Assembly (NCBI GenBank): GCA_001786765.1
Contig: MFTH01000010.1
Location: 34,105-98,104 of the forward strand
Reading direction: 5' to 3'
Length of the DNA stretch: 64,000 nt
Source of the DNA: Candidatus Nomurabacteria bacterium RIFCSPHIGHO2_01_FULL_37_25
Lineage (GTDB): Bacteria > Patescibacteriota > Minisyncoccia > Phycocordibacterales > UBA9973
Under the pieces are notes generated by a model. That model searched no databases, was not told the origin of the DNA, and was given only the letters and a program-made list of their open reading frames with translations. This document shows, piece after piece, positions 333-63,880 of the stretch. How positions within the stretch are numbered: position 1 is the stretch's first letter; each line of letters begins with the position of its first letter. The translations under genes and the position numbers were made by a program.

Positions 333-2618
333 ATGAAATTACTTATCGTTGAATCACCATCAAAAGCAAAAACAATTGAAAAATATTTAGAAAATATTTC
401 TACCTCAAGAGCGGACAGATTTACTGTGCGCGCATCTGTGGGACATATTCGCGATCTGCCAAAATCAAATAAAACAGCGATAGATATAGAAGCCGGTTTC
501 GTTCCACATTACGAAATTTCTAAGGGTAAAGAAAAAATTATCCACGAATTGCAAGAGTTAGCCGAAAAATCAAAAGAGATAATACTCGCGACTGATCCTG
601 ACCGTGAAGGAGAAGCTATCGCTTGGCATATAGAGACACTTTTGAAAAAAGATAAAAAAATAAATGCGCCAATACAAAGAGTGGCTTTTTATGAAATAAC
701 TAAAGAAGCGATAGAAGAAGCGCTCAAACACCCGCGCAAGATTGATACTAATTTACGCAAAGCTCAAGAAGCGCGTCGAGTATTGGACCGGCTCGTGGGA
801 TATGATCTCTCTGGTCTCATTTGGAAAAAAGTGCGATACGGACTTTCGGCCGGTCGTGTTCAATCTCCCGCATTGCGTATAATAATGGAACGCGAGCGTG
901 AAATTCGCGCATTTATTCCGGAGAAATTTTGGAGAATTCTCGGACTTTTTGAAACCGAAAAAGGCGAAAAGATTACTTTAGAATGCAGTGAAGAACCTCG
1001 CGATCAAAAATTAGTTGAAAAAATATTAGAGATAGGAAAAAAAGAAAGTTGGATAATAAAAGATGTGAAAGAGTCAGAACAAAAACGCTCCCCTCGCGCG
1101 CCTTTTACTACTTCTACATTACAACAAACGGCAAGTTCACGCTTAGGCTACTCTCCTTCACGCACTATGCAAATAGCCCAAAAACTCTACGAAGCTGGAC
1201 ACATAACATATATGCGAACTGACAGCACGAATCTGTCTCTGGTCGCTCAAACACAAATAATTGCATTCATTAAAAATAAATATGGTGAAGAATACGCAGA
1301 GTCAAGAATTTACAAAACTAAATCTAAAAACGCCCAAGAAGCCCACGAAGCAATACGTCCTACACATATAGAAAACCTTACCGCTCTCAGTGAAGACCAA
1401 GACAGATTATACAGATTGATCTGGGAGCGCGCTGTGTCTTCGCAAATGACTGATGCAAAATTATTAAAAACCAAAATTTTGGCAAATGTTAAAGTCGCGG
1501 AAGCTTCCGCAATTCCAGATTTTTATGCTAATGGTTCTCGTTTGCTTTTCCCCGGCTGGCTTGCGGTAGACAAGGATGCGCGGGGCGATGATGTAGAATT
1601 GCCTAAATGCAGTGTTGGAGAAAAATTAAAATTGTTAAACCTTATAAATGAAGAAAAATTTACTGAACCATTAGGCAGATACAGTGAAGCAGGATTAATT
1701 AAAGAACTCGAGGCTAGAGGCATAGGCAGACCGTCCACTTATGCGTCTATTATGAAAACAATTGAAGAGCGAGGTTATGTTAATAAAGAAGGAAAAACAT
1801 TGTTTCCCACAGATGTCGGTGAAGTTGTGTCGGATTTCTTGGAGAAACACTTTATGAATTATATCTCTGACAGCTTTACGGCTGAAATGGAGGATAAACT
1901 CGACGAAATATCAGAAGGTCAGCGTGAATACGAAAAAACGCTCAAAGATTTTTACGGACCATTTCTTAAAGACATAAAATTAAAAGAAAAACTAGAGAAA
2001 GCTACAAATCTAGGTGAGGCGCCAGAGAATATAAAATGTCCAAAGTGTGGAGAGAAAATGATTATAAAACTTTCTCGCGGAGGTAAATTTTATTCTTGTT
2101 CAAAATATCCAGACTGTGATGGAGCTCTGATGCTAGATGGCACAGAATTACAAGGTTCCAAAGAAACTGGAGAATTATGTCCTAAATGCGGTGTTGATGA
2201 AAAAGATTTGCCCCGCGAAGCTTCAGCGAAATGGGGCGGAAAACTCGTTATCAAAGAACGACGCGACGGCACTGGCACTTTTATCTCTTGTTCTCGCTAT
2301 CCAAAATGTAAATTTATAAAAAGCGATGAAGCTGACGAAATGAAAAAAAGGACGGGTGTGATGTGTCCTATCTGCAAAACTGACCTGCCTGCCGGTAGGC
2401 AGGGAGATATGAGTGAACGCCGTGGGAGATTTGGTATTTTTTATTCTTGTTCAAATTATCCTGAATGTAAATTCGCAATCAAAGCCAAACCGACAGGCGC
2501 AATATGCAAAGAGTGCGGAAGCCTGATGATGCAAGGCACAAAAACTATTCCCGAACGTTGTTCAAACAAGGCTTGCAAAATGCACAACCCTCATAAAATA
2601 ACAAAAATTGAAAAATAG
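333..2618 (+). CDS. topA: DNA topoisomerase I with four C-terminal C4 zinc-ribbon repeats
   Basis: Toprim N-terminus (LLIVESPSKAKTIEKYL), active-site region, repeated CPxC...SCSxYPxC ribbons; ends with TAG. Confidence 0.95.
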   Translation: MKLLIVESPSKAKTIEKYLENISTSRADRFTVRASVGHIRDLPKSNKTAIDIEAGFVPHYEISKGKEKIIHELQELAEKSKEIILATDPDREGEAIAWHIETLLKKDKKINAPIQRVAFYEITKEAIEEALKHPRKIDTNLRKAQEARRVLDRLVGYDLSGLIWKKVRYGLSAGRVQSPALRIIMEREREIRAFIPEKFWRILGLFETEKGEKITLECSEEPRDQKLVEKILEIGKKESWIIKDVKESEQKRSPRAPFTTSTLQQTASSRLGYSPSRTMQIAQKLYEAGHITYMRTDSTNLSLVAQTQIIAFIKNKYGEEYAESRIYKTKSKNAQEAHEAIRPTHIENLTALSEDQDRLYRLIWERAVSSQMTDAKLLKTKILANVKVAEASAIPDFYANGSRLLFPGWLAVDKDARGDDVELPKCSVGEKLKLLNLINEEKFTEPLGRYSEAGLIKELEARGIGRPSTYASIMKTIEERGYVNKEGKTLFPTDVGEVVSDFLEKHFMNYISDSFTAEMEDKLDEISEGQREYEKTLKDFYGPFLKDIKLKEKLEKATNLGEAPENIKCPKCGEKMIIKLSRGGKFYSCSKYPDCDGALMLDGTELQGSKETGELCPKCGVDEKDLPREASAKWGGKLVIKERRDGTGTFISCSRYPKCKFIKSDEADEMKKRTGVMCPICKTDLPAGRQGDMSERRGRFGIFYSCSNYPECKFAIKAKPTGAICKECGSLMMQGTKTIPERCSNKACKMHNPHKITKIEK

Positions 2619-2650: not shown

Positions 2651-4126
2651 ATGAAAAATGCATATGACGTCGGAGAAATACTAAAATTGATGGGAAAAAT
2701 AAATAAGAAAGAAGAAGAACTTATAATAAAAGCTTATAGGTTTGCGCAGCGCGCGCATGAAGGTCAAAAAAGATTAAGCGGAGAACCTCATTTCACTCAC
2801 CCTTTTGAAACAGCCAAAACTTTAGCTTCACTGGGTATGGACGCGGAAACAATCTCGGCCGGATTAATGCATGATGTTCTGGAAGATACTAAGACAGGAG
2901 AAGAAGAAATGAGAAAAGAATTTGGAGAAAATATAGTTTTTCTAGTAAATGGCGTGACAAAACTTGGAACTTTGAAATATAGAGGACACGAAAGACATGT
3001 GGAAAGTTTGAGGAAATTCTTTGTGGCGATGGCAAATGATCTACGCACAGTTATCATAAAGTTTGCCGACAGACTGCATAATTTAAAAACTTTGGAATTT
3101 TTAAGAGAAGATAAAAGACGTAGGATTGCCATAGAATCAATCGAAGTGTATGCGCCACTGGCTAACCGTCTAGGTATGGGAAAATTTAAAGGCGAACTGG
3201 AAGACGCCGCTTTTCCGTTTGCTTTTCCAGAAGAATATAAACAAACCGAAGAAATAATAAAAGAAAAAAAAGATTTATATGAAAAAAACTTAGACGAAAT
3301 ACAGAAAAAGCTTCGAAAAGAATTGAATAAAAACAAAATCAAAGTGGTGGAAATAAATTATAGAATGAAACATAAGTACAGCTTATGGAAAAAACTCTTA
3401 AAGCGCGAAATGGATATAGAAAAAGTATATGACCTGATCGCTTTGCGGGTGGTAGTAGAAAGCATAGAAGAATGTTATAGAGTGTTAGGAATAATACATT
3501 CCCTTTGGAATCCATTACCCGGCAGGATAAAAGACTACATCGCGGTGCCAAAACACAATGGCTACCGCTCCATTCACACCACTATTTTCACCGGTTCGGG
3601 CGGAATCGCAGAAATTCAAATACGAACAAAAGAAATGCATGCCGAAGCGGCTTATGGTATCGCGGCTCATTTCGCCTACAAAGAACAAGGAAATAAAAAA
3701 GTGGAAAATGATAAATCAAAATTCAAATGGATAGAAGAATTAAAAAATTTGAATTACTCTCCGGATGAACCAAAAAAATTCATTGAGCATTTAAAGATGG
3801 ATTTTTTTAATGATCGCATTTTCGTTTTTACACCCAAGGGGGATGTAATAGATATGCCAGAGGATTCGTGTTCGCTTGATTTTGCTTATTTGATACATTC
3901 GGATATCGGAGAACATACCTTTGGCGCAAAAGTCAACGGCAAAATGGTTCAGCTTTTTACAAAATTAAAAAACGGAGACATTGTGGAAATAATAACTAAA
4001 AAAGATTCCAGACCGTCCAGAAAGTGGTTAGAATTCGTAAAAACTTCTGTCGCTAAAAAACATATAAGATCATATCTGGAAAAAAACACCTTACTTGCTA
4101 GGCTTAAATCTTTCGGTCGTTCTTAA
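2651..4126 (+). CDS. rel: Small bifunctional (p)ppGpp synthetase/hydrolase (RelA/SpoT homolog; HD + synthetase + TGS, no ACT domain)
   Basis: HD motif HDVLEDT, synthetase motifs (YRSIHTTI), TGS-like C-terminus. Confidence 0.88.
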   Translation: MKNAYDVGEILKLMGKINKKEEELIIKAYRFAQRAHEGQKRLSGEPHFTHPFETAKTLASLGMDAETISAGLMHDVLEDTKTGEEEMRKEFGENIVFLVNGVTKLGTLKYRGHERHVESLRKFFVAMANDLRTVIIKFADRLHNLKTLEFLREDKRRRIAIESIEVYAPLANRLGMGKFKGELEDAAFPFAFPEEYKQTEEIIKEKKDLYEKNLDEIQKKLRKELNKNKIKVVEINYRMKHKYSLWKKLLKREMDIEKVYDLIALRVVVESIEECYRVLGIIHSLWNPLPGRIKDYIAVPKHNGYRSIHTTIFTGSGGIAEIQIRTKEMHAEAAYGIAAHFAYKEQGNKKVENDKSKFKWIEELKNLNYSPDEPKKFIEHLKMDFFNDRIFVFTPKGDVIDMPEDSCSLDFAYLIHSDIGEHTFGAKVNGKMVQLFTKLKNGDIVEIITKKDSRPSRKWLEFVKTSVAKKHIRSYLEKNTLLARLKSFGRS

Positions 4127-5142
4127 ACGCTAAAATTAGAAATATTATATAAATCACTATCATCCCCGCCTGCCAATTGGCGGGCAGGTTTTTTAATTTC
4201 TTCTTTTGATCTATCATCGATCGGCGTATCTTCAATTTCTATATCAGATTTGTTTTTATTGATGTAGTTTTGAAGCATTTCCGCTTGCGCCGGCAAGATG
4301 TTTGATTTATTTTCACTGTTTGATTTATTTATCAAACTCAAAATAGTCCGCAGGTCTTCTATGGAAAAATAATCTATCTTGATTTGTCCGCCTAATTCTT
4401 TTCTGTCAATATGCACGCGGGTGCCTAATTTTTCTTGAAATTCTTCTTCGAGTTCAGTTATTTCTGGATCTGGCATAAACTCTTTCTTGCGTACTCGGTC
4501 ATAAGCTATTTTCCTTGCTAGTCTTTCCGCTTCACGCACGGTAATTTTTTTATATACAATTTCTTTAAATAATACTAACTGCTCTTCTCCATGATCGGCT
4601 AACATTAGTAATGGTCGTGTATGACCTTCGGTAATTTTACCTTCAGACAAACCGGCTATTATTTCTTCGGGTAAAGTTAAAATACGCAAAGAGTTAGACA
4701 CATATTCCCTACTCCTGCCCATTTTTTTTGCAATCTCATTATGAGTAAATTTAAATTCATTAGCTAATCGAAAAAAAGCGCGAGCGCGATCAACAGCATT
4801 CAAATCTTCACGTTGCAAGTTTTCAATAATGGCGAGTTCAAGCTTCATAATAGCAGTGTCCCCAGCTCGGATTATAACTGGCACTTGCGAGACTCCAGCC
4901 AAAATAGCCGCGCGCAATCTGCGTTCACCTGCTATGAGCTCATATTCAGTAACTAGTCCACCTCCATCTTTTTCCACTTCCATGCGAGAAACTGTCAACG
5001 GCTGGAGCACTCCGTATTGTTTTATGGAATCAGATAAATCTTGCAGACGCATTTCATCAAAATCCCGTCTTGGTTGATATGGGTTGGGTTTTATTTTATC
5101 GGTGTCAATCCAGAAAATTGAATTTGAATATAAATTAGACAT
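4123..5142 (-). CDS. parB: ParB/Spo0J-like partition protein
   Basis: ParB box LIAGERRLRAA, HTH region, C-terminal extension. Confidence 0.82.
   Translation of the reverse strand: MSNLYSNSIFWIDTDKIKPNPYQPRRDFDEMRLQDLSDSIKQYGVLQPLTVSRMEVEKDGGGLVTEYELIAGERRLRAAILAGVSQVPVIIRAGDTAIMKLELAIIENLQREDLNAVDRARAFFRLANEFKFTHNEIAKKMGRSREYVSNSLRILTLPEEIIAGLSEGKITEGHTRPLLMLADHGEEQLVLFKEIVYKKITVREAERLARKIAYDRVRKKEFMPDPEITELEEEFQEKLGTRVHIDRKELGGQIKIDYFSIEDLRTILSLINKSNSENKSNILPAQAEMLQNYINKNKSDIEIEDTPIDDRSKEEIKKPARQLAGGDDSDLYNISNFSV
4164..4194. terminator. GC hairpin (CCGCCTGCC..GGCGGGCAGG) plus T-run between convergent rel and parB
   Basis: Stem-loop followed by TTTTTT; bidirectional position. Confidence 0.6.
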
Positions 5143-7051: not shown

Positions 7052-7198
7052 TTTGCCGTCAAACCTGCCTGCCGGTAGGCAGGGAAAAACTTAAAATAAA
7101 GTAGCAAAAAAAAAACAGCAAATCCTGTAAAAAAGTTATCCCCACCAGTTGAATAATGATAAGTTGCATTATCTCGTATATGAGATATACTATTTGGT

Positions 7199-19970: not shown

Positions 19971-20025
19971 TACTACGAAACATAAATTGAGATAACTTCT
20001 TAAGATTTCCGCATATGCAGAAATC

Positions 20026-21379: not shown

Positions 21380-21871
21380 TTATCTCCTATATTTTCTAGC
21401 GCGCCATTTATCAGCGATTTTTACACGAGTAAGTGATCGCTCGAGTTCCGCTTCAAAATGTTCAAAATCTACATGTTCTTTATTCTGCATAGCCACCTTC
21501 ATCTCTTCTGCTCGAGTTTTTGCTTTTTCTATTTTCTCGTCTGAAATTTCAAATACATGTTCTGCAAAATCAGCCAAAATAGCCACTTCTGTCACATAAT
21601 CTAAACTTTTCCCCGACGCTTCTGGTCGGGGTTCCGACCCTTCTAGGCATCGGGATTTTATTTCCACAAAACCACCAGAAACTGCCATTGGTATATTCTC
21701 GCCTTTTGAGATTCCCACCACATCTCCCGAAGCAAGACCCACAATAAGAGGTATGTGCCCCGGCAAAACAGAGATTTCACCCTCCGTAGTGGGTATAACA
21801 ACTTCATCCACCATCTCTTCTAACACAAGACGTTCTGGGGTAACTATTTTTAATTTTAATTGTTTTGCCAT
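21380..21871 (-). CDS. atpC: ATP synthase F1 epsilon subunit (probable start MAKQLKLKIV; ORF track extends to 21949); carries a 17-aa in-frame insertion encoded by a GC-rich double hairpin
   Basis: Epsilon beta-sandwich and C-terminal helices; inserted SRCLEGSEPRPEASGKS segment encoded by 21611-21655. Confidence 0.85.
   Translation of the reverse strand: MAKQLKLKIVTPERLVLEEMVDEVVIPTTEGEISVLPGHIPLIVGLASGDVVGISKGENIPMAVSGGFVEIKSRCLEGSEPRPEASGKSLDYVTEVAILADFAEHVFEISDEKIEKAKTRAEEMKVAMQNKEHVDFEHFEAELERSLTRVKIADKWRARKYRR
21611..21655. repeat. GC-rich double-hairpin palindromic element (family P2), in-frame inside atpC
   Basis: CCCCGACgcttctgGTCGGGG plus a second CCGAC..TCGGG hairpin; ~60% GC in an AT-rich gene; copies at 47574-47618 and 36083-36122. 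Confidence 0.7.
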
Positions 21872-35676: not shown

Positions 35677-35712
35677 AAGGTTTGTTTCTATCTTTTTTAT
35701 AATGTATACAAC

Positions 35713-35860
35713 TTTGAATTACGAAACTCGTCGAAGGCATGTCTTTTTTAGGGGGTTTCGAGGCTGTCGAGCCGAGAACTTCAGGATTTTTTAAGCTTAA
35801 AAAAATCCGTACCCTAGAAAAAGACATGCCTAGAAAGAGTTTTGTAATTCATGATATACA
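35713..35860. mobile_element. MITE-like element copy 1 (~148 bp, 17-bp TIRs TTTGAATTACGAAACT / AGTTT[TC]GTAATTC[AA])
   Basis: TIRs flank a core with GGCTGTCGAGCCGAG and the perfect palindrome GGATTTTTTAAGCTTAAAAAAATCC. Confidence 0.75.
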
Positions 35861-35979: not shown

Positions 35980-36054
35980 TGGTGAGCGTGGATGGAATCG
36001 GACCATCGGCCTCTGTCTTATCAGGACAGCGTTCTACCACTGAACTACACGCTC
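35980..36054 (-). tRNA. tRNA-Ile(GAT) with atypical T-loop (TCCGATT), CCA encoded
   Basis: Reverse complement GAGCGTGTAGTTCAGTGGTAGAACGCTGTCCTGATAAGACAGAGGCCGATGGTCCGATTCCATCCACGCTCACCA; canonical cloverleaf but C at the usually invariant U55. Confidence 0.65.
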
Positions 36055-36082
36055 ATACTTAAATTTTAAAATGACACTGAAA

Positions 36083-36122
36083 GCCGACGATTCTGTCGGC
36101 TCCCCGACCAAATGCGTCGGGG
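36083..36122. repeat. Intergenic copy of the GC-rich double-hairpin element (family P2)
   Basis: GCCGACgattctGTCGGC and CCCCGACcaaatgcGTCGGGG. Confidence 0.65.
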
Positions 36123-36147
36123 CTACACGCTCAAAACTTGTGAATTA

Positions 36148-36300
36148 CGAAACTCGTCGAAGGCATGTCTTTTTTAGGGGGTTTCGAGGCTGTCGAGCCG
36201 AGAACTTCAGGATTTTTCAACCTGCCTGCCGGCAGGCAGGGCTTCGAAAAATCCGTATCCTAGAAAAAGACATGCCTAGAAAGAGTTTCGTAATTCAAAG
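36148..36300. mobile_element. MITE-like element copy 2 with nested CCTGCCTGCCGGCAGGCAGGG palindrome replacing the central AAGCTT hairpin
   Basis: Same TIRs and core as copy 1; 36221-36241 carries the P1 palindrome. Confidence 0.75.
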
Positions 36301-36335
36301 TCAAAACATAAACAAATATAACATAAACAAAACAA

Positions 36336-42438: not shown

Positions 42439-42515
42439 CCCGTTAGAGATAACGGAATTAATGCTATGTTATATAATTAACTCACAAAAAAATATTTATG
42501 AAAATCTCTAACGGG
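42439..42515 (+). promoter_or_regulatory. 5' leader inverted repeat (CCCGTTAGAGAT...ATCTCTAACGGG-ATG) of rnr
   Basis: 12-bp perfect inverted repeat enclosing ~55 nt; 3' arm ends at the rnr ATG. Confidence 0.5.
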
Positions 42516-44564
42516 ATGAAAAAAAACCAAATAAAAAGACTCGAGGGTATCATGTCTATTTCCTCAAAAGGCGTTGGATATGTAAAAGTTCCAGAATTGA
42601 AAGAAGATATAGAAATTGATTCAAAATACTTGAATACTGCTATGCATGGAGATACTGTGGAAATCATTTTACATCCTAAAGAAAAAAGTCGCTCCGCTTA
42701 TGCCAAAGGCTACGGCGAGAGAAAACAAACAGCCGAAGTATCAAAAATAATTTCTCGTATTAAAACTTGTTTTGCCGGGGTTTTAGAATCGGAACCCTCT
42801 AAGTTTGGAACAAAAAATAATATTTATTTTTTGAAACCAGACGATACGAAAATGTACACAGATATTTTGATACCTGAAAGAGCGTTGCACGAAGCGAAAG
42901 CGGGGCAAAAAGTTTTTGTGGAAATAGTTTCATGGGAAAATGCAAACAAAGCGCCAGAGGGAAAAGTAATTAAAATTTTAGGTCAACCCGGAGATAATGA
43001 TACAGAAATGCATGCAATCGCCATGGAAAAAGGTTTTGATAGCGAATTTCCAAGAAAAGTGAAAGATGAGGCTAAAAATATCTCCGCCCACAATAAACAC
43101 GCGTCAGACAAAAAAGAAAATGATTATGCGGAACGACGCGATTTTAGAAAAATCTTAACTTTCACTATTGACCCAATAGACGCAAAAGACTTTGATGATG
43201 CAATTTCTTTCCAAGAATTAAAAAATAGCGAATACGAAATAGGTATTCATATCGCTGACGTTTCGCATTATGTAAAAGTCGGTAGCGCTCTTGATGATGA
43301 AGCGCGCCAGCGTGGAACTTCGGTGTATTTAGTAGATAGAACAATACCCATGCTCCCAGAAGAACTATCAAACGATTTATGCAGTTTAGTGCCAAATAAA
43401 GACAGACTCACAATGAGCGCAGTTTTTATAATAGACAAAAATGCCAAAATAAAAAGTGAGTGGTATGGACGCACTGTGATACATTCTCAAAAAAGATTTA
43501 CTTATGAAGAGGCTGGCGAGACAATCAAAAAAGCTAATGCTCCGCTCCATAAAGAATTATCAATCTTAAACAATCTGGCAAAAAAATTAACTTTAGATCG
43601 ATTTGCGCAGGGAGCAATATCTCTAGACCAAGAAGAAGTAAAATTTGTATTAGATCCTAAAGGAGTACCGATAAAAGTGGTGGTGAAAGAGCGTGGTGAT
43701 TCAAATAAGTTAATTGAGGAATTTATGCTTTTAGCTAATAAAAAAGTGGCTGAAGTATTATCTCCAAAATTATTTCAAGAGCGTCCTGATAAAAAAGCGG
43801 AAAAAGAAAATAGCGTATCTCTTTATCGCATACACGATTTACCCAGTAAAGAAAAAATGGCGGATTTGGCTTTTTTCTTACAAAGCTTGGGACACAAAGT
43901 AACTCTCCGAGATGGAATTATCCCCAGTTATGAGATAAATAATCTTCTGAAAAAATTAGCGGGGAAAAATGAAGAAAATACTGTGCAACGAGCAGTAGTG
44001 AGGTCTATGGCTAAAGCAATTTATTCCACTAAAAATATAGGACATTATGGGCTCGCATTTCCTTATTATACTCATTTTACTTCTCCAATTAGAAGATACC
44101 CAGACATTGTGGTGCATAGATTGCTCAATGATTATCTTGCAAAGAAAAAAGTTGGAAAAACCTCGCCCGACTCCCCCGTAAATATATGGCCAAAAGAAAA
44201 ATTGCTTGAATATGAAAAAATTGCCAGAATTTCATCCGAACAAGAAAAGCGCGCTTCTGACGCCGAAAGAATTTCAATAAAATACAAACAGGTTGAATAT
44301 ATGAGCAAACGTCTTGGAGAAAGTTTTGTGGGAGTGATAAGTGGCATAACAGAATGGGGTATTTATGTGGAAGAGATAGAAACCAAATGTGAAGGATTAG
44401 CGCGAGTGCGAGATATGAAAGACGACTTTTACATTTTTAATGAAAAAAAACTTGAATTGACTGGACAAAAAAACAAAAATAAATACCGTTTGGGTGATCG
44501 TGTTAAAATAAAAGTAAAGGGAGTTGATTTAGAAAGAAAAACAATAGACTATGTTTTGATATGA
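42516..44564 (+). CDS. rnr: Ribonuclease R (cold-shock, RNB and S1 domains)
   Basis: RNB catalytic motifs, C-terminal S1; ORF track begins at 42498, the second ATG at 42516 is more likely. Confidence 0.88.
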   Translation: MKKNQIKRLEGIMSISSKGVGYVKVPELKEDIEIDSKYLNTAMHGDTVEIILHPKEKSRSAYAKGYGERKQTAEVSKIISRIKTCFAGVLESEPSKFGTKNNIYFLKPDDTKMYTDILIPERALHEAKAGQKVFVEIVSWENANKAPEGKVIKILGQPGDNDTEMHAIAMEKGFDSEFPRKVKDEAKNISAHNKHASDKKENDYAERRDFRKILTFTIDPIDAKDFDDAISFQELKNSEYEIGIHIADVSHYVKVGSALDDEARQRGTSVYLVDRTIPMLPEELSNDLCSLVPNKDRLTMSAVFIIDKNAKIKSEWYGRTVIHSQKRFTYEEAGETIKKANAPLHKELSILNNLAKKLTLDRFAQGAISLDQEEVKFVLDPKGVPIKVVVKERGDSNKLIEEFMLLANKKVAEVLSPKLFQERPDKKAEKENSVSLYRIHDLPSKEKMADLAFFLQSLGHKVTLRDGIIPSYEINNLLKKLAGKNEENTVQRAVVRSMAKAIYSTKNIGHYGLAFPYYTHFTSPIRRYPDIVVHRLLNDYLAKKKVGKTSPDSPVNIWPKEKLLEYEKIARISSEQEKRASDAERISIKYKQVEYMSKRLGESFVGVISGITEWGIYVEEIETKCEGLARVRDMKDDFYIFNEKKLELTGQKNKNKYRLGDRVKIKVKGVDLERKTIDYVLI

Positions 44565-46504: not shown

Positions 46505-46536
46505 GTAGACTCTGTATATGATAAAATTACTCATCT

Positions 46537-46570
46537 GTCTAAGATTTCCGCATATGCGGAAATCTTAGAC
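46537..46570. repeat. 34-bp perfect palindrome GTCTAAGATTTCCGCATATGCGGAAATCTTAGAC (family P3) between convergent genes
   Basis: Perfect dyad; related copies at 20003-20026 and 52081-52106 with half-site 51429-51447. Confidence 0.8.
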
Positions 46571-46572
46571 TC

Positions 46573-47181
46573 TTAGACATGGTATCCGGCTTTTGTAAGC
46601 AATTCTTTTAATAAGTGTATCGGCATACCAACGATACTTTCTTCGTTACCCTCAATTTTTTTAACATAGGGTCTTAAAATGGGATGCTGAACACCAAAAC
46701 CACCAGCTCGACCAAGCGGATCTCCAATTTTTATAAAATTTTCAATTACAGACTCTGAAAATGGATTCCAAAAAACTTGCGCCTTAGCAACACCCTCATA
46801 ATATACTCCTGTGGCAGTGTTAAAGATAACAATGGCTGTTACCCCTTCCGGAGCCACGCCTGCGCTATATTCTCTCAGAAATTTACGCGCTTCTTCTTCC
46901 GACTCCGGTTTTTCCCTCAGTTTTCCATTACACACTGCAACAGCATCAGAAGTAATAAGAAGGGCTGGCTCGTTAATTTTTGATATAAGAACATTCGCCT
47001 TAGCCCTCGCTAGCAAAAGCGGTCTTTTATATGGATCATTCTCTATGATTTCTTTTTCATCTAACTCAGGAATTAAAACTTCAAAAACATAACCCGCTTT
47101 TTCCATGAGATCCTTTCTATATTTAGAAGATGAGCCAAGAATTAATTTCATAAAATTATTTCGCAATTTGTGTAGCTTCAT
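46573..47181 (-). CDS. maf: Maf-like nucleoside triphosphate pyrophosphatase
   Basis: Maf-family homology (LILGSSSKYRKDLM...). Confidence 0.82.
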   Translation of the reverse strand: MKLHKLRNNFMKLILGSSSKYRKDLMEKAGYVFEVLIPELDEKEIIENDPYKRPLLLARAKANVLISKINEPALLITSDAVAVCNGKLREKPESEEEARKFLREYSAGVAPEGVTAIVIFNTATGVYYEGVAKAQVFWNPFSESVIENFIKIGDPLGRAGGFGVQHPILRPYVKKIEGNEESIVGMPIHLLKELLTKAGYHV

Positions 47182-49339
47182 TAAATTTTACAGAGAGAAG
47201 TTTAGAGGCTCCATTTGCGCCTATTGTGACTCCATAAAGCACTCCAGCGCGAGACATCGTCTCGCGGTTGTGAGTAACGACAATAAGCTGTGAATGTTTA
47301 GAGAGTTTCTCTAACATATCACCGTATTTGCGCGAATTTGCTTCGTCAAGCGCGGCATCGGTTTCATCCAATACCAAAAACGGTGGCGGATTTACTTGAG
47401 ACATAGCGAAGAGAAGGGCTATAGATGTGAGCGACCTCTCTCCGCCTGAGAGCGCATGAAGCTCTTTGACTTTTTTGTGAGGAAGCTTCACATTTATTTC
47501 TATTCCCTGTTCGAGCACGGATTCTTCTTCATCAATAAAGTCTTCCTCTAATTCTATATCTTCATAATTTTTTCCCGACGCTTGCGGTCGGGACCCCGAC
47601 TCCTCTGGGCGTCGGGACTTTTTATTTTCAACAACAATAGCAAGAGAACCTGTACCCCCATCGAACATTAGAGAAAAGAATTCTTGAAATTCCACATTTA
47701 TCTTTTTGATACCCTCTTTAAACTCTACATCAATTTTCTCTTTCAATTCTGCTATAAGCTTTTGTAATGATTCAACGCTTTTTGTTAAATCTTCTAATTC
47801 TTTTGCTAAAAATTGGTCCCGTTCTGAGACTTCTTTAAATTCTTTCAAAACCTCTGCTCCACTACCAACACCGGTATCTTCTAATTTTATTTTTAGGCGT
47901 TCAATTTTTTTCTTTAGTTCTTCTTGAGTAATTTCTTCTGCATTACCCTTTTTAATTTCATAATCTTTATAAGACAAAACAAGAGCTCCAATGAGCGCGA
48001 CGCCTTCTTTGATCTCATTATGAAAAGCTTCTGTCCGATTTTTTAAATTTCCCTCTTTGATAATTACCAACTCTAAAGCCGAAGACAGCTCCTGATGCTT
48101 AACTTTGAATTTAAATTTTTCTTTTTCAAGATCACGCAAAGATTCTATTTCTTTGTTTATCTCTTGCTTTAATGCTTCTATTTGCGCATTTAATTCTTTT
48201 TCTTTATTTTCTATATCTCGCGCCTCCTCTAGAAGACTAGACTGCGAAACTTTTAATTCTATTAGTTCTTTCTCGTTATTCTCTTTATTTTCTATTTGTT
48301 CTTTATTTATTTCTCCTAATTCTTTTCCGCATGTTGGACATCTGCCTAAGAGACCTCCGAGTTTTACTCTATTATTTTTCGCTTCTATCATTCCTTCTAT
48401 TCTGCCGAGCTTGCGTTCTATCTCATTCTTTAGCACTCTAATTCCACTCATTTTTTTCTCAACAATTTTTAATTCTTCAATTTTCTTATTCCCCTTAATA
48501 GAATTGCCGACTTCAATATCATGAATCTTGGGAGTTATCTGTTTTAGTTCATCGTTAATTTTATTTCTTTCGACTAACAAGCCAGATAATTCTAAATCTA
48601 AATAAATACTTTCTTTCTTGAAATATTCTCTATAGAAAGTCGAGAGCTCAATCTGCATTTCTTTCACTTTCTCAAGCTTCTCTACTTGTTTCTTCAAAAA
48701 ATTAAAATGCGGGGCGTTTTCTCTTCGTAACATTACTACTTCTTTCATATTATTAGATGTTCGTTCCAACTTGCGCTCGGATTCTTTTATTTTATATTGA
48801 TATATCTTAAGCCCGAGCGCATCTTCCACCATTTCTTTTCTATCTTTTGGACTCGCATTTAAAATCCTATCCGCTTCGCCTTGCGAAATAATATGATGCC
48901 CAGAGGAGCCGATGTTTACAGAAGCTAAAAGATTATGAACATCTTTTAACCTTACTTCTTCTCCATTTAGAATATATTTATTTAATCCGTCAGAATGCAC
49001 CTCGCGAGAAATAATGATGGTGTCATAATTTAGATTTATATTTTCCCCCGTATCATTTTCAAGTTTAAAAATTTTATCGGAATTATTGAAATATATCGCG
49101 ACATTTGCTCTGGAGCCTTTAGACAAGCTTTTTGACCCTTTGAAAATAAGATCAAGTCCCGACTTTCCACGCATTGACTTCATTGATTGTTCACCTAAGA
49201 CATAACGAAGAGCCTCCACTACATTAGATTTTCCAGAACCATTGGGACCGACGATGCAAACAATAGGACTCTCAAATTCCAAAACAGTTTTTTGAGCAAA
49301 AGATTTAAAACCATTTATTTCAAGAGTTTTGAGCCTCAT
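47156..49339 (-). CDS. smc: Short SMC-type ATPase (727 aa) with CxxC (CPTCG) at the coiled-coil apex in place of a canonical hinge; contains an in-frame GC-rich element insertion
   Basis: SMC N-head (FKSF, GPNGSGKSN), C-head LSGGERSLTSIALLFA...LDETDAALD...LYGVT; CPTCG near residue 335 of 727; inserted SRRPEESGSRPQASGK encoded at 47574-47618. Confidence 0.75.
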   Translation of the reverse strand: MRLKTLEINGFKSFAQKTVLEFESPIVCIVGPNGSGKSNVVEALRYVLGEQSMKSMRGKSGLDLIFKGSKSLSKGSRANVAIYFNNSDKIFKLENDTGENINLNYDTIIISREVHSDGLNKYILNGEEVRLKDVHNLLASVNIGSSGHHIISQGEADRILNASPKDRKEMVEDALGLKIYQYKIKESERKLERTSNNMKEVVMLRRENAPHFNFLKKQVEKLEKVKEMQIELSTFYREYFKKESIYLDLELSGLLVERNKINDELKQITPKIHDIEVGNSIKGNKKIEELKIVEKKMSGIRVLKNEIERKLGRIEGMIEAKNNRVKLGGLLGRCPTCGKELGEINKEQIENKENNEKELIELKVSQSSLLEEARDIENKEKELNAQIEALKQEINKEIESLRDLEKEKFKFKVKHQELSSALELVIIKEGNLKNRTEAFHNEIKEGVALIGALVLSYKDYEIKKGNAEEITQEELKKKIERLKIKLEDTGVGSGAEVLKEFKEVSERDQFLAKELEDLTKSVESLQKLIAELKEKIDVEFKEGIKKINVEFQEFFSLMFDGGTGSLAIVVENKKSRRPEESGSRPQASGKNYEDIELEEDFIDEEESVLEQGIEINVKLPHKKVKELHALSGGERSLTSIALLFAMSQVNPPPFLVLDETDAALDEANSRKYGDMLEKLSKHSQLIVVTHNRETMSRAGVLYGVTIGANGASKLLSVKFNEATQIAK
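47574..47618. repeat. GC-rich double-hairpin palindromic element (family P2), in-frame inside smc
   Basis: CCCGACgcttgcgGTCGGG and CCCCGACtcctctgggcGTCGGG. Confidence 0.7.
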
Positions 49340-51459: not shown

Positions 51460-52080
51460 TTAAAATAAATGAAAATTTTTCTTTAACTTTTCTTCTCTTA
51501 AGAAGTTTTCTACAGTCAAAACCTCCACATATTTCCCCACTCCAAAGAAATCAGCAATAAAGATTATTTCGTCTTCACAAGGATAAGGATAAATCCAAGC
51601 GGATTTTTGAAATTGGAAAAAATTTAATTCTTTCAAATGATACCGTAATGCTTCTCTACCTTTTGTAAATCTCATCGGAATATCAAACATAACTAATCTC
51701 CATTTGCTATCCCATCTTTTTGGCTTGTTAATCTTCATCAGCTCAATATCGAAAGCTCTGAGTCTCGTATTTCCTTTTTTAGTAATTTTTACTATAGTTT
51801 TTCCGTTCTTGTCAGCGACATATTCTATGAGTTTTTGACGTCTAATATTATCAATAGCGCTTTGTATTTGTTTTTTAGAATACTTTTTAGATCCTTCAAA
51901 CATCTTAAAACATTGCACTGCATTACCCATAACTCCTGCGCCCAACACCAGCATAGGCATTAAAGATACAGCCAACACACAAAGAGCAACTGTGGAAATT
52001 TTTGCTTCAGTTGTATCAGACTCTAAAAAATCTTTTAATCTCTTTGAATACCCTGCTTTATTATTTTTTCCCATATACAT
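51460..52080 (-). CDS. PaaX-family-like regulator (N-terminal TM segment, wHTH, PaaX_C-like W..W.L..FDIP...LR..L...F.....S.W..P) bracketed by inverted half-palindromes
   Basis: RWDSKWRLVMFDIPMRFTKGREALRYHLKELNFFQFQKSAWIYP matches the PaaX C-terminal pattern; IRs at 51429-51447 and 52081-52099. Confidence 0.45.
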   Translation of the reverse strand: MYMGKNNKAGYSKRLKDFLESDTTEAKISTVALCVLAVSLMPMLVLGAGVMGNAVQCFKMFEGSKKYSKKQIQSAIDNIRRQKLIEYVADKNGKTIVKITKKGNTRLRAFDIELMKINKPKRWDSKWRLVMFDIPMRFTKGREALRYHLKELNFFQFQKSAWIYPYPCEDEIIFIADFFGVGKYVEVLTVENFLREEKLKKNFHLF

Positions 52081-52107
52081 AAGATTCTAGCATATGCGGA
52101 AATCTTA

Positions 52108-54043: not shown

Positions 54044-54047
54044 CCTA

Positions 54048-54190
54048 GTTTGAATTACGAAACTCTTACTTGGCATATCTTTTTCTAGGGTACAGATTTT
54101 TTGAAGCTTAAAAAATCTTGAAGTTTGCTCGCCGTCGCTCGCAAAACCCCCTAAAAAAGACATGCCTGCGACAAGTTTCGTAATTCAAAG
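54048..54190. mobile_element. MITE-like element copy 3 (opposite orientation, ~85% identity to copy 1), followed by a degenerate partial copy at ~54205-54275
   Basis: Same 17-bp TIRs TTTGAATTACGAAACT...AGTTTCGTAATTCAAAG and AAGCTT-centred internal hairpin. Confidence 0.75.
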
Positions 54191-54337
54191 TTAATTAGTA
54201 TAAATTCCAAAAAAACTCGTCGCAGGTGTAGTTTTTGGTAGACATTGCGCAGGCTGACGAGCCGAGCATAGCAAATTTTCAGCAGAAAATTATGCGTGTC
54301 TAACAAAAATTATACCGAGAAAGAGTTTTTTTGGAAT

Positions 54338-55709: not shown

Positions 55710-55747
55710 ACTTGTATATTATAACAACAAATAAGCGGCAAAAATAC

Positions 55748-55952: not shown

Positions 55953-56672
55953 ATGGAAACCAAGAAAAGACGGCGGAATCCCTGGGGCCCAGTTTTAAAA
56001 AATCCAAAGGCAACACAGGACACTGCAGTTGGGACTGCAGTTCCACCGCCACAGAAGAAACAAAAGATGGTGGAATGGCTGGTGGGGGGGATATTTATTT
56101 TTCTGGTCCTGGTATGCGGATTCTACTTTGAGTTCGCGTACCGAGTCCTGGCTGTAGTTGGGCTCGGGATCACCATGGCTGTACTCATGGTACAGTCTAT
56201 CTTCTCCGAGAAAGAGGTGAGTTTTTGGACCACCTTGGGAAAGGTTGTTGGAAACAACAACTGGATTTACTGGTGGATCTTCTTGTCTGGGATGGCTTGT
56301 CTCCTGATAGGATTTTTCTCAAACAACATTCCGAGAAAAATCTATACGGTGCTTGTCATAATAGACAATCCTGTAAGTCCCGGTAATTGGAGTAAGGCCG
56401 CAGAGAGTCTTACTCTAGAGGACCCTTTTAAAAACAACGACGACAACCCCTTCCTCGCAACAAACGAAGGAACTCAAGGCAGTTCCCTCTTCGCAGGAGA
56501 GGAGGCGAAATGGGGTTTCGCCGGTCTTCAATTCCTCTTGCTGGCTCTGCCAGCAAGGTTCGTCTCTTACTGGGACGAAATGAAGAGGAAGGCGAAAAAA
56601 AAGGAGAAGGGCCAGAGCTGGATTAGCTGGTTCTTCAGCCACGTCCTCTTTGAATTAATCTGGCCTGGGTAG
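55953..56672 (+). CDS. Hypothetical polytopic membrane protein (GC-rich island)
   Basis: GC-rich ORF with SD AAGGGAGAAGGAA before the ATG; several TM helices. Confidence 0.5.
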   Translation: METKKRRRNPWGPVLKNPKATQDTAVGTAVPPPQKKQKMVEWLVGGIFIFLVLVCGFYFEFAYRVLAVVGLGITMAVLMVQSIFSEKEVSFWTTLGKVVGNNNWIYWWIFLSGMACLLIGFFSNNIPRKIYTVLVIIDNPVSPGNWSKAAESLTLEDPFKNNDDNPFLATNEGTQGSSLFAGEEAKWGFAGLQFLLLALPARFVSYWDEMKRKAKKKEKGQSWISWFFSHVLFELIWPG

Positions 56673-56693
56673 GTAATAGAGGAGACCAAAAAT

Positions 56694-57206
56694 ATGCCGA
56701 GAATCTTCATAATGTTGGTGGTGTTGGTGCTTTCAATTTACTCTTTTGGATGCGGGGGGGAGAATAAGTATGAAAAGACCATAAGTTCTGCTGAAAAGCA
56801 GGACAGGGATAGCCCCCCTGCAAATTATGAAGAGGCGCAAAAACGCTTCAACCAAGTAGCCAAGTATCTTGACTACTTGGAGAAGCATCCGGAGAGTTCT
56901 TCCCCAGAACTCACAGCAAGGGCAAAGGCCCTGCTGGATAGCCGTAAAGCGGCGGCTATGGCTAAAGGATGGAATGTCGCCGCCGGAGCGCTAGAGAAGG
57001 TAGTGCAAAAGGCGAAGGAAGTGGCGAAGGAAGTGCTGGGCACCATTGGCGTCACAGACCTACCCAGCGCTGCCAAAAAGGTCGAGGAGGCAAGAGATTG
57101 GGTCCTTAGGGACCCGGAAAGAGAAGAACAGTTCTCCTGCAAGGATATCGACGGTAACCCCGTCGACGTCACGAAGGAAGGTTTTGCCCATCTCTGCGTA
57201 AGGTAG
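56694..57206 (+). CDS. Hypothetical lipoprotein (GC-rich island)
   Basis: Signal peptide with lipobox-like ...YSFGC, helical body. Confidence 0.5.
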   Translation: MPRIFIMLVVLVLSIYSFGCGGENKYEKTISSAEKQDRDSPPANYEEAQKRFNQVAKYLDYLEKHPESSSPELTARAKALLDSRKAAAMAKGWNVAAGALEKVVQKAKEVAKEVLGTIGVTDLPSAAKKVEEARDWVLRDPEREEQFSCKDIDGNPVDVTKEGFAHLCVR

Positions 57207-57264
57207 AAAGGAGGAAAAAACTTACGCAGGTGGGGAGGGTGCGCGACCCTATAACGCGCAAATT

Positions 57265-57298
57265 GGGCGGACTCAGAAATGAGTACCGCCCTTTTTTT
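57265..57298 (+). terminator. Rho-independent terminator
   Basis: GGGCGGactcagaaatgagtaCCGCCC plus TTTTTTT. Confidence 0.75.
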
Positions 57299-57350
57299 AT
57301 TTTAATATTATAAAATAAGGATAAAATAGCTTTTTTGTCAAGATTAAACC

Positions 57351-57556
57351 TTGACTTTTTCATTTTATTGTGCTATACTATAAAGGTAATCAGGTCTTTG
57401 AAAATATAATATGTTCTGAGTCATTCTTGAGCAGTTTGCCTATCAAGTAGCTAAAGAGATTTGGCTCTTTGCTTGGCAAACGAGCTCAAGGAATGGAAAC
57501 TTCTCTGGTGAAAGCCAGAGTACAAATGCGTCATCTTGACGCGAAAGGAGTCCACA
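57351..57556 (+). promoter_or_regulatory. Promoter (TTGACT-17-TATACT) plus ~170-nt structured leader, copy 2
   Basis: See copy 1; the ORF-track ORF 57469-57702 lies inside the leader and is probably not coding. Confidence 0.65.
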
Positions 57557-58654
57557 ATGTGGACATTGATTATTTTATTAGCGGCCAGTTACTGGGCATC
57601 CACTGGGATACCCGGGTGGCCGTTGTCAACATGGCAGACGTCCCTGGTGGCGGGAGCCCTATATGGGCTCTATCGACTGGCGTGCTGGATGCAGTGGATT
57701 GATGGTGGCCATCATACCACCACACCAGTTAGCACCGCCGCCGGACACAGTGGAGGAAGTGGTGGTATGTGGGGAGGGATACCAAAGCTAGGACTTTGGT
57801 ACGTTCTCACAACCGCCCTAATGATGATAGGTACATACATAGTCAACGTGCAAAACGTTGACATGTTTATGTATTTCATAACATTAGGGGGACGGTCGTG
57901 GATTTATCCTTTATCCACAACGGATGCTATCCTCTGGACGTCTACCCTGGCTCTCATGTCAGCGGTCGCCTGGCTAGCAGTGGAGGGGAGATGGCGACCG
58001 GCTGGATGGATATTCGGGATAACCTTTATAACTCTCCTTGTTTTTAGGGAGTTCGGTCCGTTCTTCGAGGCGATCCGGCCGATCCCGAGCTCCGGTCCTG
58101 TCACGCCGGGCATCGGCGAAAGTCAAGAGAGGGCGGACCTGAACGCCGCCCTAGTCAAGCGAGGAGCGCTCCCCGTAGCGGGGGAGGTGGTGGCCAAGTT
58201 TGGGTTCGGGGAGGTAGACCCAAAGGAAGGTTTCCTCCTCGGCCTGGTTTCCCGAGGGTGGGTGTGGTGGATGGGCGCACCCACCTACGACCCCAAGAAG
58301 GGGGCAGTCCTGGGGAGATTGTATCAGTTTTGGGAATGGGCGGCTGGAGAAAGCCCACTCCCATCTCGCGCGCCGGCGGTAGTGTTTTCCCCCACCCCTG
58401 CGCCGGCGGGACCGCTGAGAAGCTGTTCCGTCCCCTGCGAGATGTGGGTGGATTGGGAGGAGGACATCAAAACGGGTGGGCGAGACGTTTTGGTCCTCTT
58501 CCACGGAAAGGAGGAATGGTTCCGCCTTTCCGGAGGGAATGAAAAGGATATCCCCAGGGAGGTTTTCTCCCCCGGCAAGGCAAAGTTTGCTTTGCCGGAC
58601 GACGGCGACGACGCGTCGCCCATAATGGTAAAAATTTTCGCGGCGAAAAAATAA
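57557..58654 (+). CDS. Hypothetical polytopic membrane protein with Pro/Gly-rich C-terminal region (GC-rich island)
   Basis: ATG at 57557 preceded by AAAGGAG; ~8 TM helices; ORF-track start 57536 is a TTG upstream. Confidence 0.5.
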   Translation: MWTLIILLAASYWASTGIPGWPLSTWQTSLVAGALYGLYRLACWMQWIDGGHHTTTPVSTAAGHSGGSGGMWGGIPKLGLWYVLTTALMMIGTYIVNVQNVDMFMYFITLGGRSWIYPLSTTDAILWTSTLALMSAVAWLAVEGRWRPAGWIFGITFITLLVFREFGPFFEAIRPIPSSGPVTPGIGESQERADLNAALVKRGALPVAGEVVAKFGFGEVDPKEGFLLGLVSRGWVWWMGAPTYDPKKGAVLGRLYQFWEWAAGESPLPSRAPAVVFSPTPAPAGPLRSCSVPCEMWVDWEEDIKTGGRDVLVLFHGKEEWFRLSGGNEKDIPREVFSPGKAKFALPDDGDDASPIMVKIFAAKK

Positions 58655-63150: not shown

Positions 63151-63212
63151 CTATACATTATAGTATTAAAAAACTTAATTTGCATTGAAGTTATTAACAA
63201 AAAACCTTGATG

Positions 63213-63880
63213 TCAAAGAGACACTTTGACATAATACAGTGAATGAGTAATAGAGATTATAAAAAATTTAATATTGGATCAATAGCTCACATTTACAACA
63301 GAGGAAATAACAAGGAAAAAATATTTTTTGATGATCAAGATTACAGAGCTTTTCTTTTTAGACTTGCTTTAGTTTTAGGATTTGACCAAAAAGAATTACA
63401 AAACGAAAACTTGTTAAGTATGCCTTATTCCAGAATACGAATTGAATTTAAAGGAAAAAATAAATTCAAAATACATGCTTTTTGTCTTATGCCAAATCAT
63501 TTTCATTTATTAATTGAGCAAGTTGGAGATACCTCAATTTCAAAATTAATTTCAAAAGTCTGTTCAAGTTATTCTAAATATATAAATAAAAAATATAAAC
63601 GTGTTGGACATACTTTTCAAGATTGTTTTAAAGCTGTAATTATTGAGAATAATCCTCAACTAATGTGGGTTTCGTCTTATATCCACATGAATGCAGTAAA
63701 AGATGGTTTGGTAAAACACCCTTCTGAATATTTATGGAGTAGTTACAACGATTACACTTCCCTCAGAAATTTACCGTTAGTTACAAAAGAATTATTAATA
63801 GAAACTTTTGGCGATGAGAAAAATTTTATAGAACAAACATTGAATTTTAGTGTCAAAGTGTCTCTTTGACACCCTTACCT
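63213..63880 (+). mobile_element. IS200/IS605-type element carrying a RAYT-like Y1 transposase, flanked by complementary hairpins
   Basis: Left hairpin TGTCAAAGagacacTTTGACA (63215-63235); right GTGTCAAAGtgtctcTTTGACAC (63855-63877), the reverse complement of the left. Confidence 0.7.
63243..63869 (+). CDS. tnpA: IS200-like / REP-associated tyrosine transposase (HuH Y1)
   Basis: HuH motif LMPNHFHLL, catalytic Tyr region (WSSYNDY), ~200-aa RAYT-length form. Confidence 0.78.
   Translation: MSNRDYKKFNIGSIAHIYNRGNNKEKIFFDDQDYRAFLFRLALVLGFDQKELQNENLLSMPYSRIRIEFKGKNKFKIHAFCLMPNHFHLLIEQVGDTSISKLISKVCSSYSKYINKKYKRVGHTFQDCFKAVIIENNPQLMWVSSYIHMNAVKDGLVKHPSEYLWSSYNDYTSLRNLPLVTKELLIETFGDEKNFIEQTLNFSVKVSL

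Follow-up and report, generated by a model that had tools for sequence, protein, structure and literature searches.

A 45-nucleotide double-hairpin repeat lies in frame in a short smc gene and belongs to a family dispersed across Patescibacteria

We examined a stretch of 64,000 nucleotides (nt) from contig MFTH01000010.1 of Candidatus Nomurabacteria bacterium RIFCSPHIGHO2_01_FULL_37_25, here called the window, and within it a GC-rich double hairpin that lies inside a gene for a short SMC-family ATPase, smc (Table 1). The predicted SMC protein has an identical counterpart, a hypothetical protein, in Candidatus Nomurabacteria bacterium RIFCSPHIGHO2_01_FULL_37_2x, from the candidate phyla radiation (CPR, or Patescibacteria), and was found on at least 23 contigs from several samples. 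It has the features of its class, namely an SMC_N head with Walker A, signature and Walker B motifs and a long coiled coil. SMC heads in the PDB match it at 5e-33, and the modelled helices span residues 178-559. At the apex of the coiled coil there is a CPTCG motif and not a hinge domain. This C-P-x-C-G (residues 334-338, about 48325-48340 of the window) is invariant at the tip; the protein looks like a Rad50-type zinc hook joined to an SMC-type head, in the same rnc-smc gene context as bacterial smc.

Read on the plus strand, the element is TCCCGAC-GCTTGCG-GTCGGGA-CCCCGAC-TCCTCTGGGC-GTCGGGA, that is, two neighboring stem-loops with T runs on either side. A preliminary description of this DNA had rightly seen a homopolymer-bounded element here but had placed it at 47574-47618, one base off from its correct position of 47573-47617. 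On the coding strand the copy reads TCCCGAC GCCCAGAGGA GTCGGGG / TCCCGAC CGCAAGC GTCGGGA, and smc passes through it in phase 0 in exactly 15 codons (TCC CGA CGC CCA GAG GAG TCG GGG TCC CGA CCG CAA GCG TCG GGA), which encode SRRPEESGSRPQASG. The in-frame placement that had been claimed is thus correct. The outer pair of hairpin 1 is a T.G wobble. Hairpin 2 is the best-conserved part of the family and is 100% identical in the smc genes of two related loci, L005 and L007 (L numbers denote loci and P numbers denote protein homologues). No stop codon occurs in any of the six frames of the element. The GC content of the copy is about 0.73 to 0.76 compared to 0.35 in the remaining gene, a contrast that the earlier figures of 60% in 30% had understated. 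The pattern CCCGAC-N4-14-GTCGGG occurs four times in the window and not once in 100 shuffles. Folding as single-stranded DNA gives z-scores of −3.2 to −4.6, with the SMC copy at −3.6 (plus strand) and −4.4 (coding strand). The predicted insert peptide is SRRPEESGSRPQASGK, and a tryptic peptide spanning the insert would be, e.g., PEESGSRPQASGK.

The copy lies in a hypervariable acidic loop of the C-terminal head, between GGTGSLAIVVENKK and EQGIEINV. In an alignment of 120 SMC homologues, this loop is flanked by GGxGSLxIVxENKK and EQGIEINVSLP, and compared to the solved Bacillus subtilis SMC head, its 35 residues stand for about one residue between two beta strands. In structural terms, the site is not proximal to the coiled coil, as had first been proposed, but a loop between two strands of the ATPase head. 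In the AlphaFold model, which we used for the loop only because the head was poorly modelled (mean predicted local distance difference test [pLDDT] score, 67), residues 572-609 are coil with a pLDDT of <50 between strands 563-570 and 611-618.

The same peptide was found at the same place in seven homologues with 73 to 78% identity (P0007, P0030, P0031, P0038, P0048, P0089, and P0099). It is missing from the closest homologue, P0002 (83% identity), and from most others in the alignment. The empty site in P0002 (locus L006) reads AAT AGA AAG AAG AAA AAT, and the DNA of filled and empty sites differs with no target duplication. Nearly identical 45-nt copies are present in smc of L005 and L007, with a different hairpin 1 loop in L007. 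Insert carriers are scattered in a neighbor-joining tree of the 120 homologues. A single ancient insertion was rejected on this scatter, although so star-like a tree cannot count events. In other lineages, the same loop holds GC-hairpin inserts of different kinds (SPRRRSA..., SRREKVEPLES..., and AKFSEAESPDAS...), and their DNA folds into GC hairpins. In all, at least three GC-hairpin insert types besides the CCCGAC element occupy this loop, SRREKVEPLESPRFDLE, SPRRRSAALADKSAEEA, and AKFSEAESPDASEEAFRE, in L203 (P0003), L204 (P0013), and L205 (P0012), and they are likewise scattered over the SMC tree.

A sister copy of 45 nt lies in frame in atpC, which encodes the F1 epsilon subunit. Aligned by codons, the atpC and SMC copies are both in phase 0 and identical at 35 of 45 positions without gaps. 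As this similarity survives proper alignment, it is not a chance likeness between GC-rich sequences, which is ruled out as well by the shuffles and by the occurrence of the family at no fewer than 115 loci. The SMC, atpC, and intergenic copies are thus of one family, as the preliminary description had stated. The atpC copy encodes SRCLEGSEPRPEASG and sits where a turn joins the last two beta strands of the N-terminal sandwich; there, 22 AtpC residues stand for a 2-residue turn of solved epsilon subunits. AtpC homologues are 147 to 149 amino acids (aa) long without the insert and 163 to 164 aa long with it, and other insert families occupy the same turn. Two homologues, P0137 and P0142, have half-elements (KSR-PGASGK and KS-RPEASGK). 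These look like the loss of one hairpin unit, which a deletion between the repeated arms would give. In RNase R, L005 carries a copy in frame 2, and there is no copy at this site in the window, L006, or L007. At the equivalent site, the window RNase R (open reading frame [ORF] 42498..44564, plus strand; region 43990-44030) reads TSPDSPVNIWP (ACC TCG CCC GAC TCC CCC ...), a stretch that may be what is left of a decayed hairpin insert.

From the window copies and two relatives, we derived a 27-nt core pattern without variable gaps, GTCGGNNNCCCGACCNNANGCGTCGGG, which on the coding strand spans the 3' arm of hairpin 1 and the whole of hairpin 2. The scan took in one genome per GTDB species, and the family counts given here are among the matches listed. 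The core matched at least 115 loci. Except for two high-GC chance matches (L040 and L099), all those listed are in metagenome-assembled genomes of Patescibacteria type, among them Nomura-, Zambryski-, Roizman-, Berkel-, Lipton-, Yanofsky-, Giovannoni-, and Kaiserbacteria, Paceibacterota, and Minisyncoccia; the depositors of some records gave them as Saccharibacteria or Gammaproteobacteria. No match to the core was found in 2.9 million viral contigs, and on this result a phage vector was rejected. Rfam 15 gave only tRNAs at the gathering threshold and, around two copies, nothing credible at E values up to 10, so we likewise rejected a known RNA family. The consensus is (A/C)AG / YCCCGAC G CCC nnn GGG GTCGGGR / YCCCGAC C nnAn GC GTCGGGR / AAA.

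The further ORF-embedded copies that the preliminary description had suggested looking for are numerous: 70 of the 120 matches listed are clearly inside long ORFs, 56 in the coding orientation and 14 in the opposite one. The form of exactly 45 nt, in which hairpin 1 has an inner CCC/GGG stem, makes up 44 of 93 listed copies, and 43 of these 44 are in ORFs. Forms of 40 to 43 nt, with short hairpin 1 loops (GTAAA, GTTTCA, or GATTCT), are outside ORFs in 24 of 41 listed copies. The host ORFs are largely essential housekeeping genes. Hosts confirmed by Pfam are UvrA, LeuRS, FtsK, DnaK, BipA, IF-2, CCA/polyA polymerase, NusA, DnaX, GlyRS, ribosomal proteins S1 and L1, MetK, RpoA, a thioredoxin-reductase-like protein, SecA, YchF, GyrB, MurI, and pyrophosphatase.

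Because the SMC and atpC copies both encode the core RP(E/Q)ASGK, it had been proposed that the peptide is conserved as well as the DNA. This is true of these two copies, which share one reading frame, but not of the family. Frame 1, giving (S/P)RRPxGSGSRPxASGK, is used by 21 listed copies and frame 2, giving (A/V)PTPEGVGVPT(E/A)SVGK, by 31, while varied peptides are encoded by 4 copies in frame 0 and 14 on the opposite strand. We then examined covariation in 43 distinct 45-nt copies, using only those base pairs that the search pattern had not fixed. With the exception of one pair that is nearly always C-G, the tested pairs are formed in 41 to 43 of the 43 copies and are of all four types (C-G, T-A, A-T, and G-C). 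For the variable pairs, the observed pairing was reached in none of 2,000 column shuffles. Copies at the same site of the same gene in different species keep their pairing by two-sided changes, as in UvrA (L024/L100/L118, e.g., CCC/GGG in L100 and CCT/AGG in L118), GlyRS (L048/L076, with an outer pair of C-G in L048 and T-A in L076), and IF-2 (L066/L079/L116). Mismatches are about equally G.T (six) and A.C (four), which gives no sign of selection on one RNA strand. Since the stem changes are compensatory and three reading frames are in use, the sequences indicate that the conserved unit is the nucleic acid structure, the hairpin, and not the peptide.

The copies also have a preferred setting. 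On the 5' side of the listed 45-nt copies, position −2 is A in 93% and position −1 is G (73%) or A (27%), and the 3' flank is A-rich. A 41-nt intergenic copy in the window splits a duplicated 5' fragment of the adjacent tRNA-Ile gene. Its flanks (ACTGAA and CTACACGCTCA) show no target duplication and, once joined, are the exact 5' D-arm of that tRNA; L068 and L092 have the same layout. A systematic search found seven intergenic copies whose joined flanks differ from a neighboring tRNA (Ile, Val, Gly, or Thr) at no more than 2 of 18 positions. As the joined flanks restore an uninterrupted D-arm, insertion was precise and left no target-site duplication.

Table 1. Coordinates of the double-hairpin copies, their host genes, and associated features in the window
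Feature	Position	Strand	Remarks
Host gene smc	47156..49339	−	Short SMC-family ATPase, 727 aa; Pfam SMC_N, 7.7e-59
45-nt double-hairpin element	47573..47617	−	15 codons in frame in smc, residues 575-589
Hairpin 1 of SMC copy	47595..47617	−	7-nt arms, 10-nt loop; inner CCC/GGG stem partly decayed
Hairpin 2 of SMC copy	47573..47593	−	TCCCGAC-CGCAAGC-GTCGGGA
45-nt sister copy	21611..21655	−	In frame in atpC (F1 epsilon, ATG at 21871)
41-nt intergenic form	36082..36122	+	AGCCGAC GATTCT GTCGGCT CCCCGAC CAAATGC GTCGGGG; beside tRNA-Ile
Intact tRNA-Ile(GAU)	35980..36054	−	Its 5' D-arm duplicated at 36073-36133 around the intergenic copy
RAYT-like Y1 (HUH) transposase gene	63243..63869	+	Own inverted hairpins: TGTCAAAGAGACACTTTGACA at 63211, complement at 63851

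The intergenic copies led to a candidate enzyme. Clustering of nearby ORFs identified an 87-aa GIY-YIG ORF (at 6308-6568 in L053) within about 10 to 140 nt of 4 of the 32 listed intergenic copies. On the tRNA strand, the order at these loci is a copy of the tRNA 5' fragment, a CCCCGAC hairpin, an AGCCGAC hairpin (TCCCGAC/TGCCGAC in some), the rest of the D-arm copy, the GIY-YIG ORF, and the intact tRNA. In the reverse direction, a search with the GIY-YIG protein, limited by its word index, gave five relatives, and at all five loci picked in this way by GIY-YIG homology alone, a copy of a tRNA fragment contains double hairpins of the CCGAC type. The same layout recurs with different hairpin families at further GIY-YIG genes (L057 and L138). 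From this linkage, we tentatively regard the small GIY-YIG nuclease as the likeliest mobilizing enzyme, at a confidence well short of even. It is possible, at a slightly lower level of confidence still, that the CCCGAC hairpins and sister families (e.g., CCTGCC...GGCAGG) are dispersed, non-autonomous partners of this nuclease that seed in-frame inserts in essential genes throughout the CPR.

Several observations concern the tRNA sites themselves. GIY-YIG ORFs lie directly 5' of intact tRNA genes in L053 (6243-6568), L088 (6440-6750), L052 (605-905), L063 (2087-2640), L206-L210, L057, and L138. Ahead of each lies a second copy of the tRNA 5' D-arm (or of an anticodon-arm half) that is split by a GC hairpin, the family of which varies. 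The tRNA-Ile 5' fragment of the window lies upstream of the intact gene with no GIY-YIG ORF there, and in L092 there are two tandem tRNA-Ile fragments, the second with a CCCGCC-type hairpin and a CTGAA duplication. A MITE-like (miniature inverted-repeat transposable element) sequence of 160 to 180 nt with GC-rich internal hairpins occurs three times in the window, at 35698-35858, 36124-36304, and 54034-54194. Its terminal inverted repeats are TGAATTACGAAACTCGTCGAAGGCATGTCTTTTT ... AAAAAGACATGCC..GTTTCGTAATTCA, and two of the copies flank the tRNA-Ile gene.

The explanation that we favor, with a probability of about 0.7, is that a mobile double-hairpin element found throughout the CPR has left a copy in frame in smc, in a permissive loop of the head domain, where it is tolerated and translated. 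In this model, the element would be a small non-autonomous mobile DNA of two adjoining GC-rich hairpins with the arms CCCGAC/GTCGGG, the units being inverted relative to each other, and it would be moved in trans, perhaps by repair or copying triggered by a nuclease break. Copies would land in A-rich DNA beside (A/C)AG, with no duplication of the target. Those in protein genes would persist only where the frame is kept and only in permissive surface loops; the genic form most often seen has exactly 45 nt and six open frames. The insert would then be transcribed and translated as a flexible linker of 15 residues rich in Gly, Ser, Pro, and Arg, which in SMC would lengthen an already variable loop. 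The element is presumably selfish or neutral and probably does nothing useful for SMC.

Several points weigh against this explanation. The evidence is wholly comparative, and no transposition, excision, or translation was observed. The 27-nt core is kept across distant CPR lineages and is compensated at the same sites, which exceeds the needs of a purely selfish element and could mean a host-level function or a repair bias that corrects palindromes. No GIY-YIG gene was found in the window by tblastn, and the tRNA-Ile copy there has the architecture without the ORF. The GIY-YIG link comprises nine loci, all at tRNA genes, and the nuclease may merely share a safe haven, the harmless pseudo-tRNA site, with the hairpins. 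The star-like SMC tree makes the number of independent gains and losses uncertain, and the AlphaFold model of SMC is poor overall.

An alternative with a different enzyme is that the element is a doublet of inverted repetitive extragenic palindromic (REP) units, a REPIN, moved as single-stranded DNA in trans by a REP-associated tyrosine transposase (RAYT) of the Y1 HUH type. The hairpin units appear inverted to each other, and the copy in L013 is a perfect inverted doublet. Insertion is precise, without duplication, and beside a short motif, as in IS200/IS605-type insertion. The window and related contigs also encode RAYT-like Y1 proteins whose genes are flanked by inverted hairpins (Table 1), and some intergenic copies have GTAG, a REP hallmark (PMC4690160), directly 5' of the hairpin. 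Yet these genes have hairpins of their own. In the window, the 21-nt hairpin at 63211-63231 recurs as its reverse complement at 63851-63871 and has no dispersed copies, and four Y1 genes from among the window and its relatives, which we aligned, are each flanked by their own inverted hairpins. A CCGAC-type hairpin flanks none of 80 RAYT-like loci in metagenomes, each of which has its own different hairpin. tblastn of the Y1 proteins against the element loci (at least 115) found no linked gene within about 4 kb, other than an unrelated one in L102. GTAG or GTGG is present at the 5' end of only 1 of the 44 listed 45-nt copies and, among listed copies of other forms, at 4 of 48 top-strand and 3 of 48 bottom-strand ends (7 of 96 in all). 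Most listed copies are intragenic, unlike REPs. The best NCBIfam match of these Y1 proteins is the REP-associated tyrosine transposase, but the window protein, at 68 bits, falls under the cut-off of 80. We therefore rejected a RAYT link, disfavor RAYT as the mobilizer, and consider this alternative unlikely.

About equally unlikely is that the host selects the motif for its structure, as a protein-binding site, an mRNA-stability element, or an antisense terminator, with the coding inserts being incidental. This would account for the conserved core and the compensation at shared gene sites. It would also fit the hairpin 2 loops, which are mostly GNRA-like (GCAA, GAAA, or GGAA in 53 of 93 listed copies), and the TTTTTATTTT that follows the SMC copy on the antisense strand. 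Against it, the wobble mismatches show no strand asymmetry and no Rfam family matches. The test for an intrinsic terminator failed, as the sense strand has A runs and a consensus scan called nothing at the element on either strand; with the wobble counts, this led us to reject an antisense terminator. Copies are also present or absent among close relatives, they occupy unrelated places in unrelated genes and in pseudo-tRNA fragments, and several unrelated hairpin families share the same loops, as would be expected of tolerated insertions. Two explanations at the level of the protein are far less probable than either of these. For the peptide to be a selected module (a linker, modification, or interaction motif of RP(E/Q)ASGK type), one can cite the frame and peptide core shared by the SMC and AtpC copies and the several SMC and AtpC homologues with the same peptide. 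But three sense frames and the antisense strand give unrelated peptides, the compensatory stem changes alter residues, and intergenic copies are common, so that the frame distribution has already largely refuted the idea. Only marginally less improbable is that the hairpins are cut from the mRNA or skipped by the ribosome, leaving the protein unaltered. The GC-hairpin "byp" elements of yeast mitochondria are skipped by the ribosome, and some of our copies lie inside tRNA-like sequences at D-loop and anticodon-loop positions (L063 and L210). However, removal would need neither a length divisible by three nor open frames, yet 43 of the 44 listed 45-nt copies are in ORFs and the host frame runs on through the copies. 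The tRNA-like carriers, for their part, look like decayed duplicates because their acceptor stems are broken and they adjoin intact tRNA copies.

Other features of the window are of separate interest. A second GC-hairpin family, CCTGCCTGCCGGTAGGCAGG, occurs at 2384-2403 (TopA ORF 333..2618, plus strand), 4165-4188 (ParB ORF 4123..5142, minus strand), 7064-7083 (intergenic), and 36221-36240. In TopA it is in frame in the zinc-ribbon region and reads LPAGRQG, and a related overlapping form gives PARQLAGG near the ParB C terminus. At other loci, RNase R and FtsK contain LPAGRQG or LPAGRQA, and AtpC homologues contain GLPAQAG. The palindrome AGATTTCCGCATATGCGGAAATCT occurs three times (19982-20026, 46521-46565, and 52061-52105), always at gene ends and with similar upstream sequence, and could be terminator- or operator-like. 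Between 56000 and 60000, the GC content is 0.45 to 0.48 compared to about 0.35 elsewhere. This DNA (ORFs 55953..58654) may be foreign, and there are internal repeats in the high-GC stretch at 55747/57350 and 59168/60073.

In a full-text literature search, we found neither in-frame hairpin repeats nor REPINs nor GIY-YIG/hairpin cassettes described for the CPR, although absence there is no proof of novelty. CPR genomes are minimal, yet these copies add codons to core machinery, including SMC, ATP synthase epsilon, DnaK, IF-2, UvrA, RpoA, SecA, and GyrB. The family thus amounts to many natural insertion experiments that map permissive loops of conserved proteins. Gene calling, alignment trimming, and phylogenomics of CPR proteins can go astray on these repeats, which could also be used as lineage markers. 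If the association with GIY-YIG genes and tRNA fragments reflects mechanism, it would be an undescribed route for moving short palindromes, and such a mechanism could bear on the unexplained mobility of GC hairpins in organelle genomes.

Those organellar elements, the mitochondrial GC clusters of yeast and the double-hairpin elements (DHEs) of Allomyces, are short, mobile, GC-rich double hairpins in AT-rich genomes and are sometimes found in coding regions. To our knowledge, no enzyme that mobilizes them has been identified. They may resemble the CPR element in form but are unrelated to it in sequence. MITEs can create in-frame fusions (PMC10969869). Like them, the CPR element is small and non-autonomous and has terminal inverted symmetry, its outer 7-nt arms being inverted copies, but no target-site duplication was seen, and the element is far smaller than typical MITEs. 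No parent insertion sequence with matching ends was found in a search limited to Y1 and GIY-YIG genes. REPs are extragenic and have an invariant 5' GTAG or GTGG, and the RAYT gene is flanked by its cognate REPs (PMC3337134 and PMC4690160). The CPR element likewise fits the description of a GC-rich imperfect palindrome of about 20 to 40 nt that can form a hairpin, and it shares with REPs and REPINs the many dispersed copies, the A/T-rich flanks, and an occasional 5' GTAG. It may also share the doublet of inverted units: loop polarity is inverted between the two hairpins and L013 is a perfect inverted doublet, but in most listed copies the two loops are unrelated. Most of the copies lie within genes, few have GTAG, and the CCCGAC hairpin flanks no RAYT-like gene. 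Despite the like form, we did not file the element as a REP or REPIN because RAYT is unlinked and GTAG is rare. The proposed pairing of nuclease and hairpin would be analogous to RAYT and REPIN but built on another enzyme.

The nearest parallel is with the Rickettsia palindromic elements (RPEs; Ogata et al. 2000, 2002, as summarized in PMC10969869), which are in-frame palindromic inserts in many genes of a reduced genome. Both are palindromic repeats that are in frame in many unrelated and often essential genes of reduced-genome bacteria and that also occur between genes. RPEs are translated into extra surface peptides, and the CPR element would be as well. RPEs are about 100 to 150 bp long with one conserved ORF per family, while the CPR element has 40 to 45 nt, two minimal hairpins, and several frames in use. 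The CPR hosts span many lineages, there is no sequence relation, and the CPR family is linked to cassettes of a tRNA fragment and a GIY-YIG gene. RPEs are the closest match in behavior, with size, sequence, frame use, and host setting the two apart.

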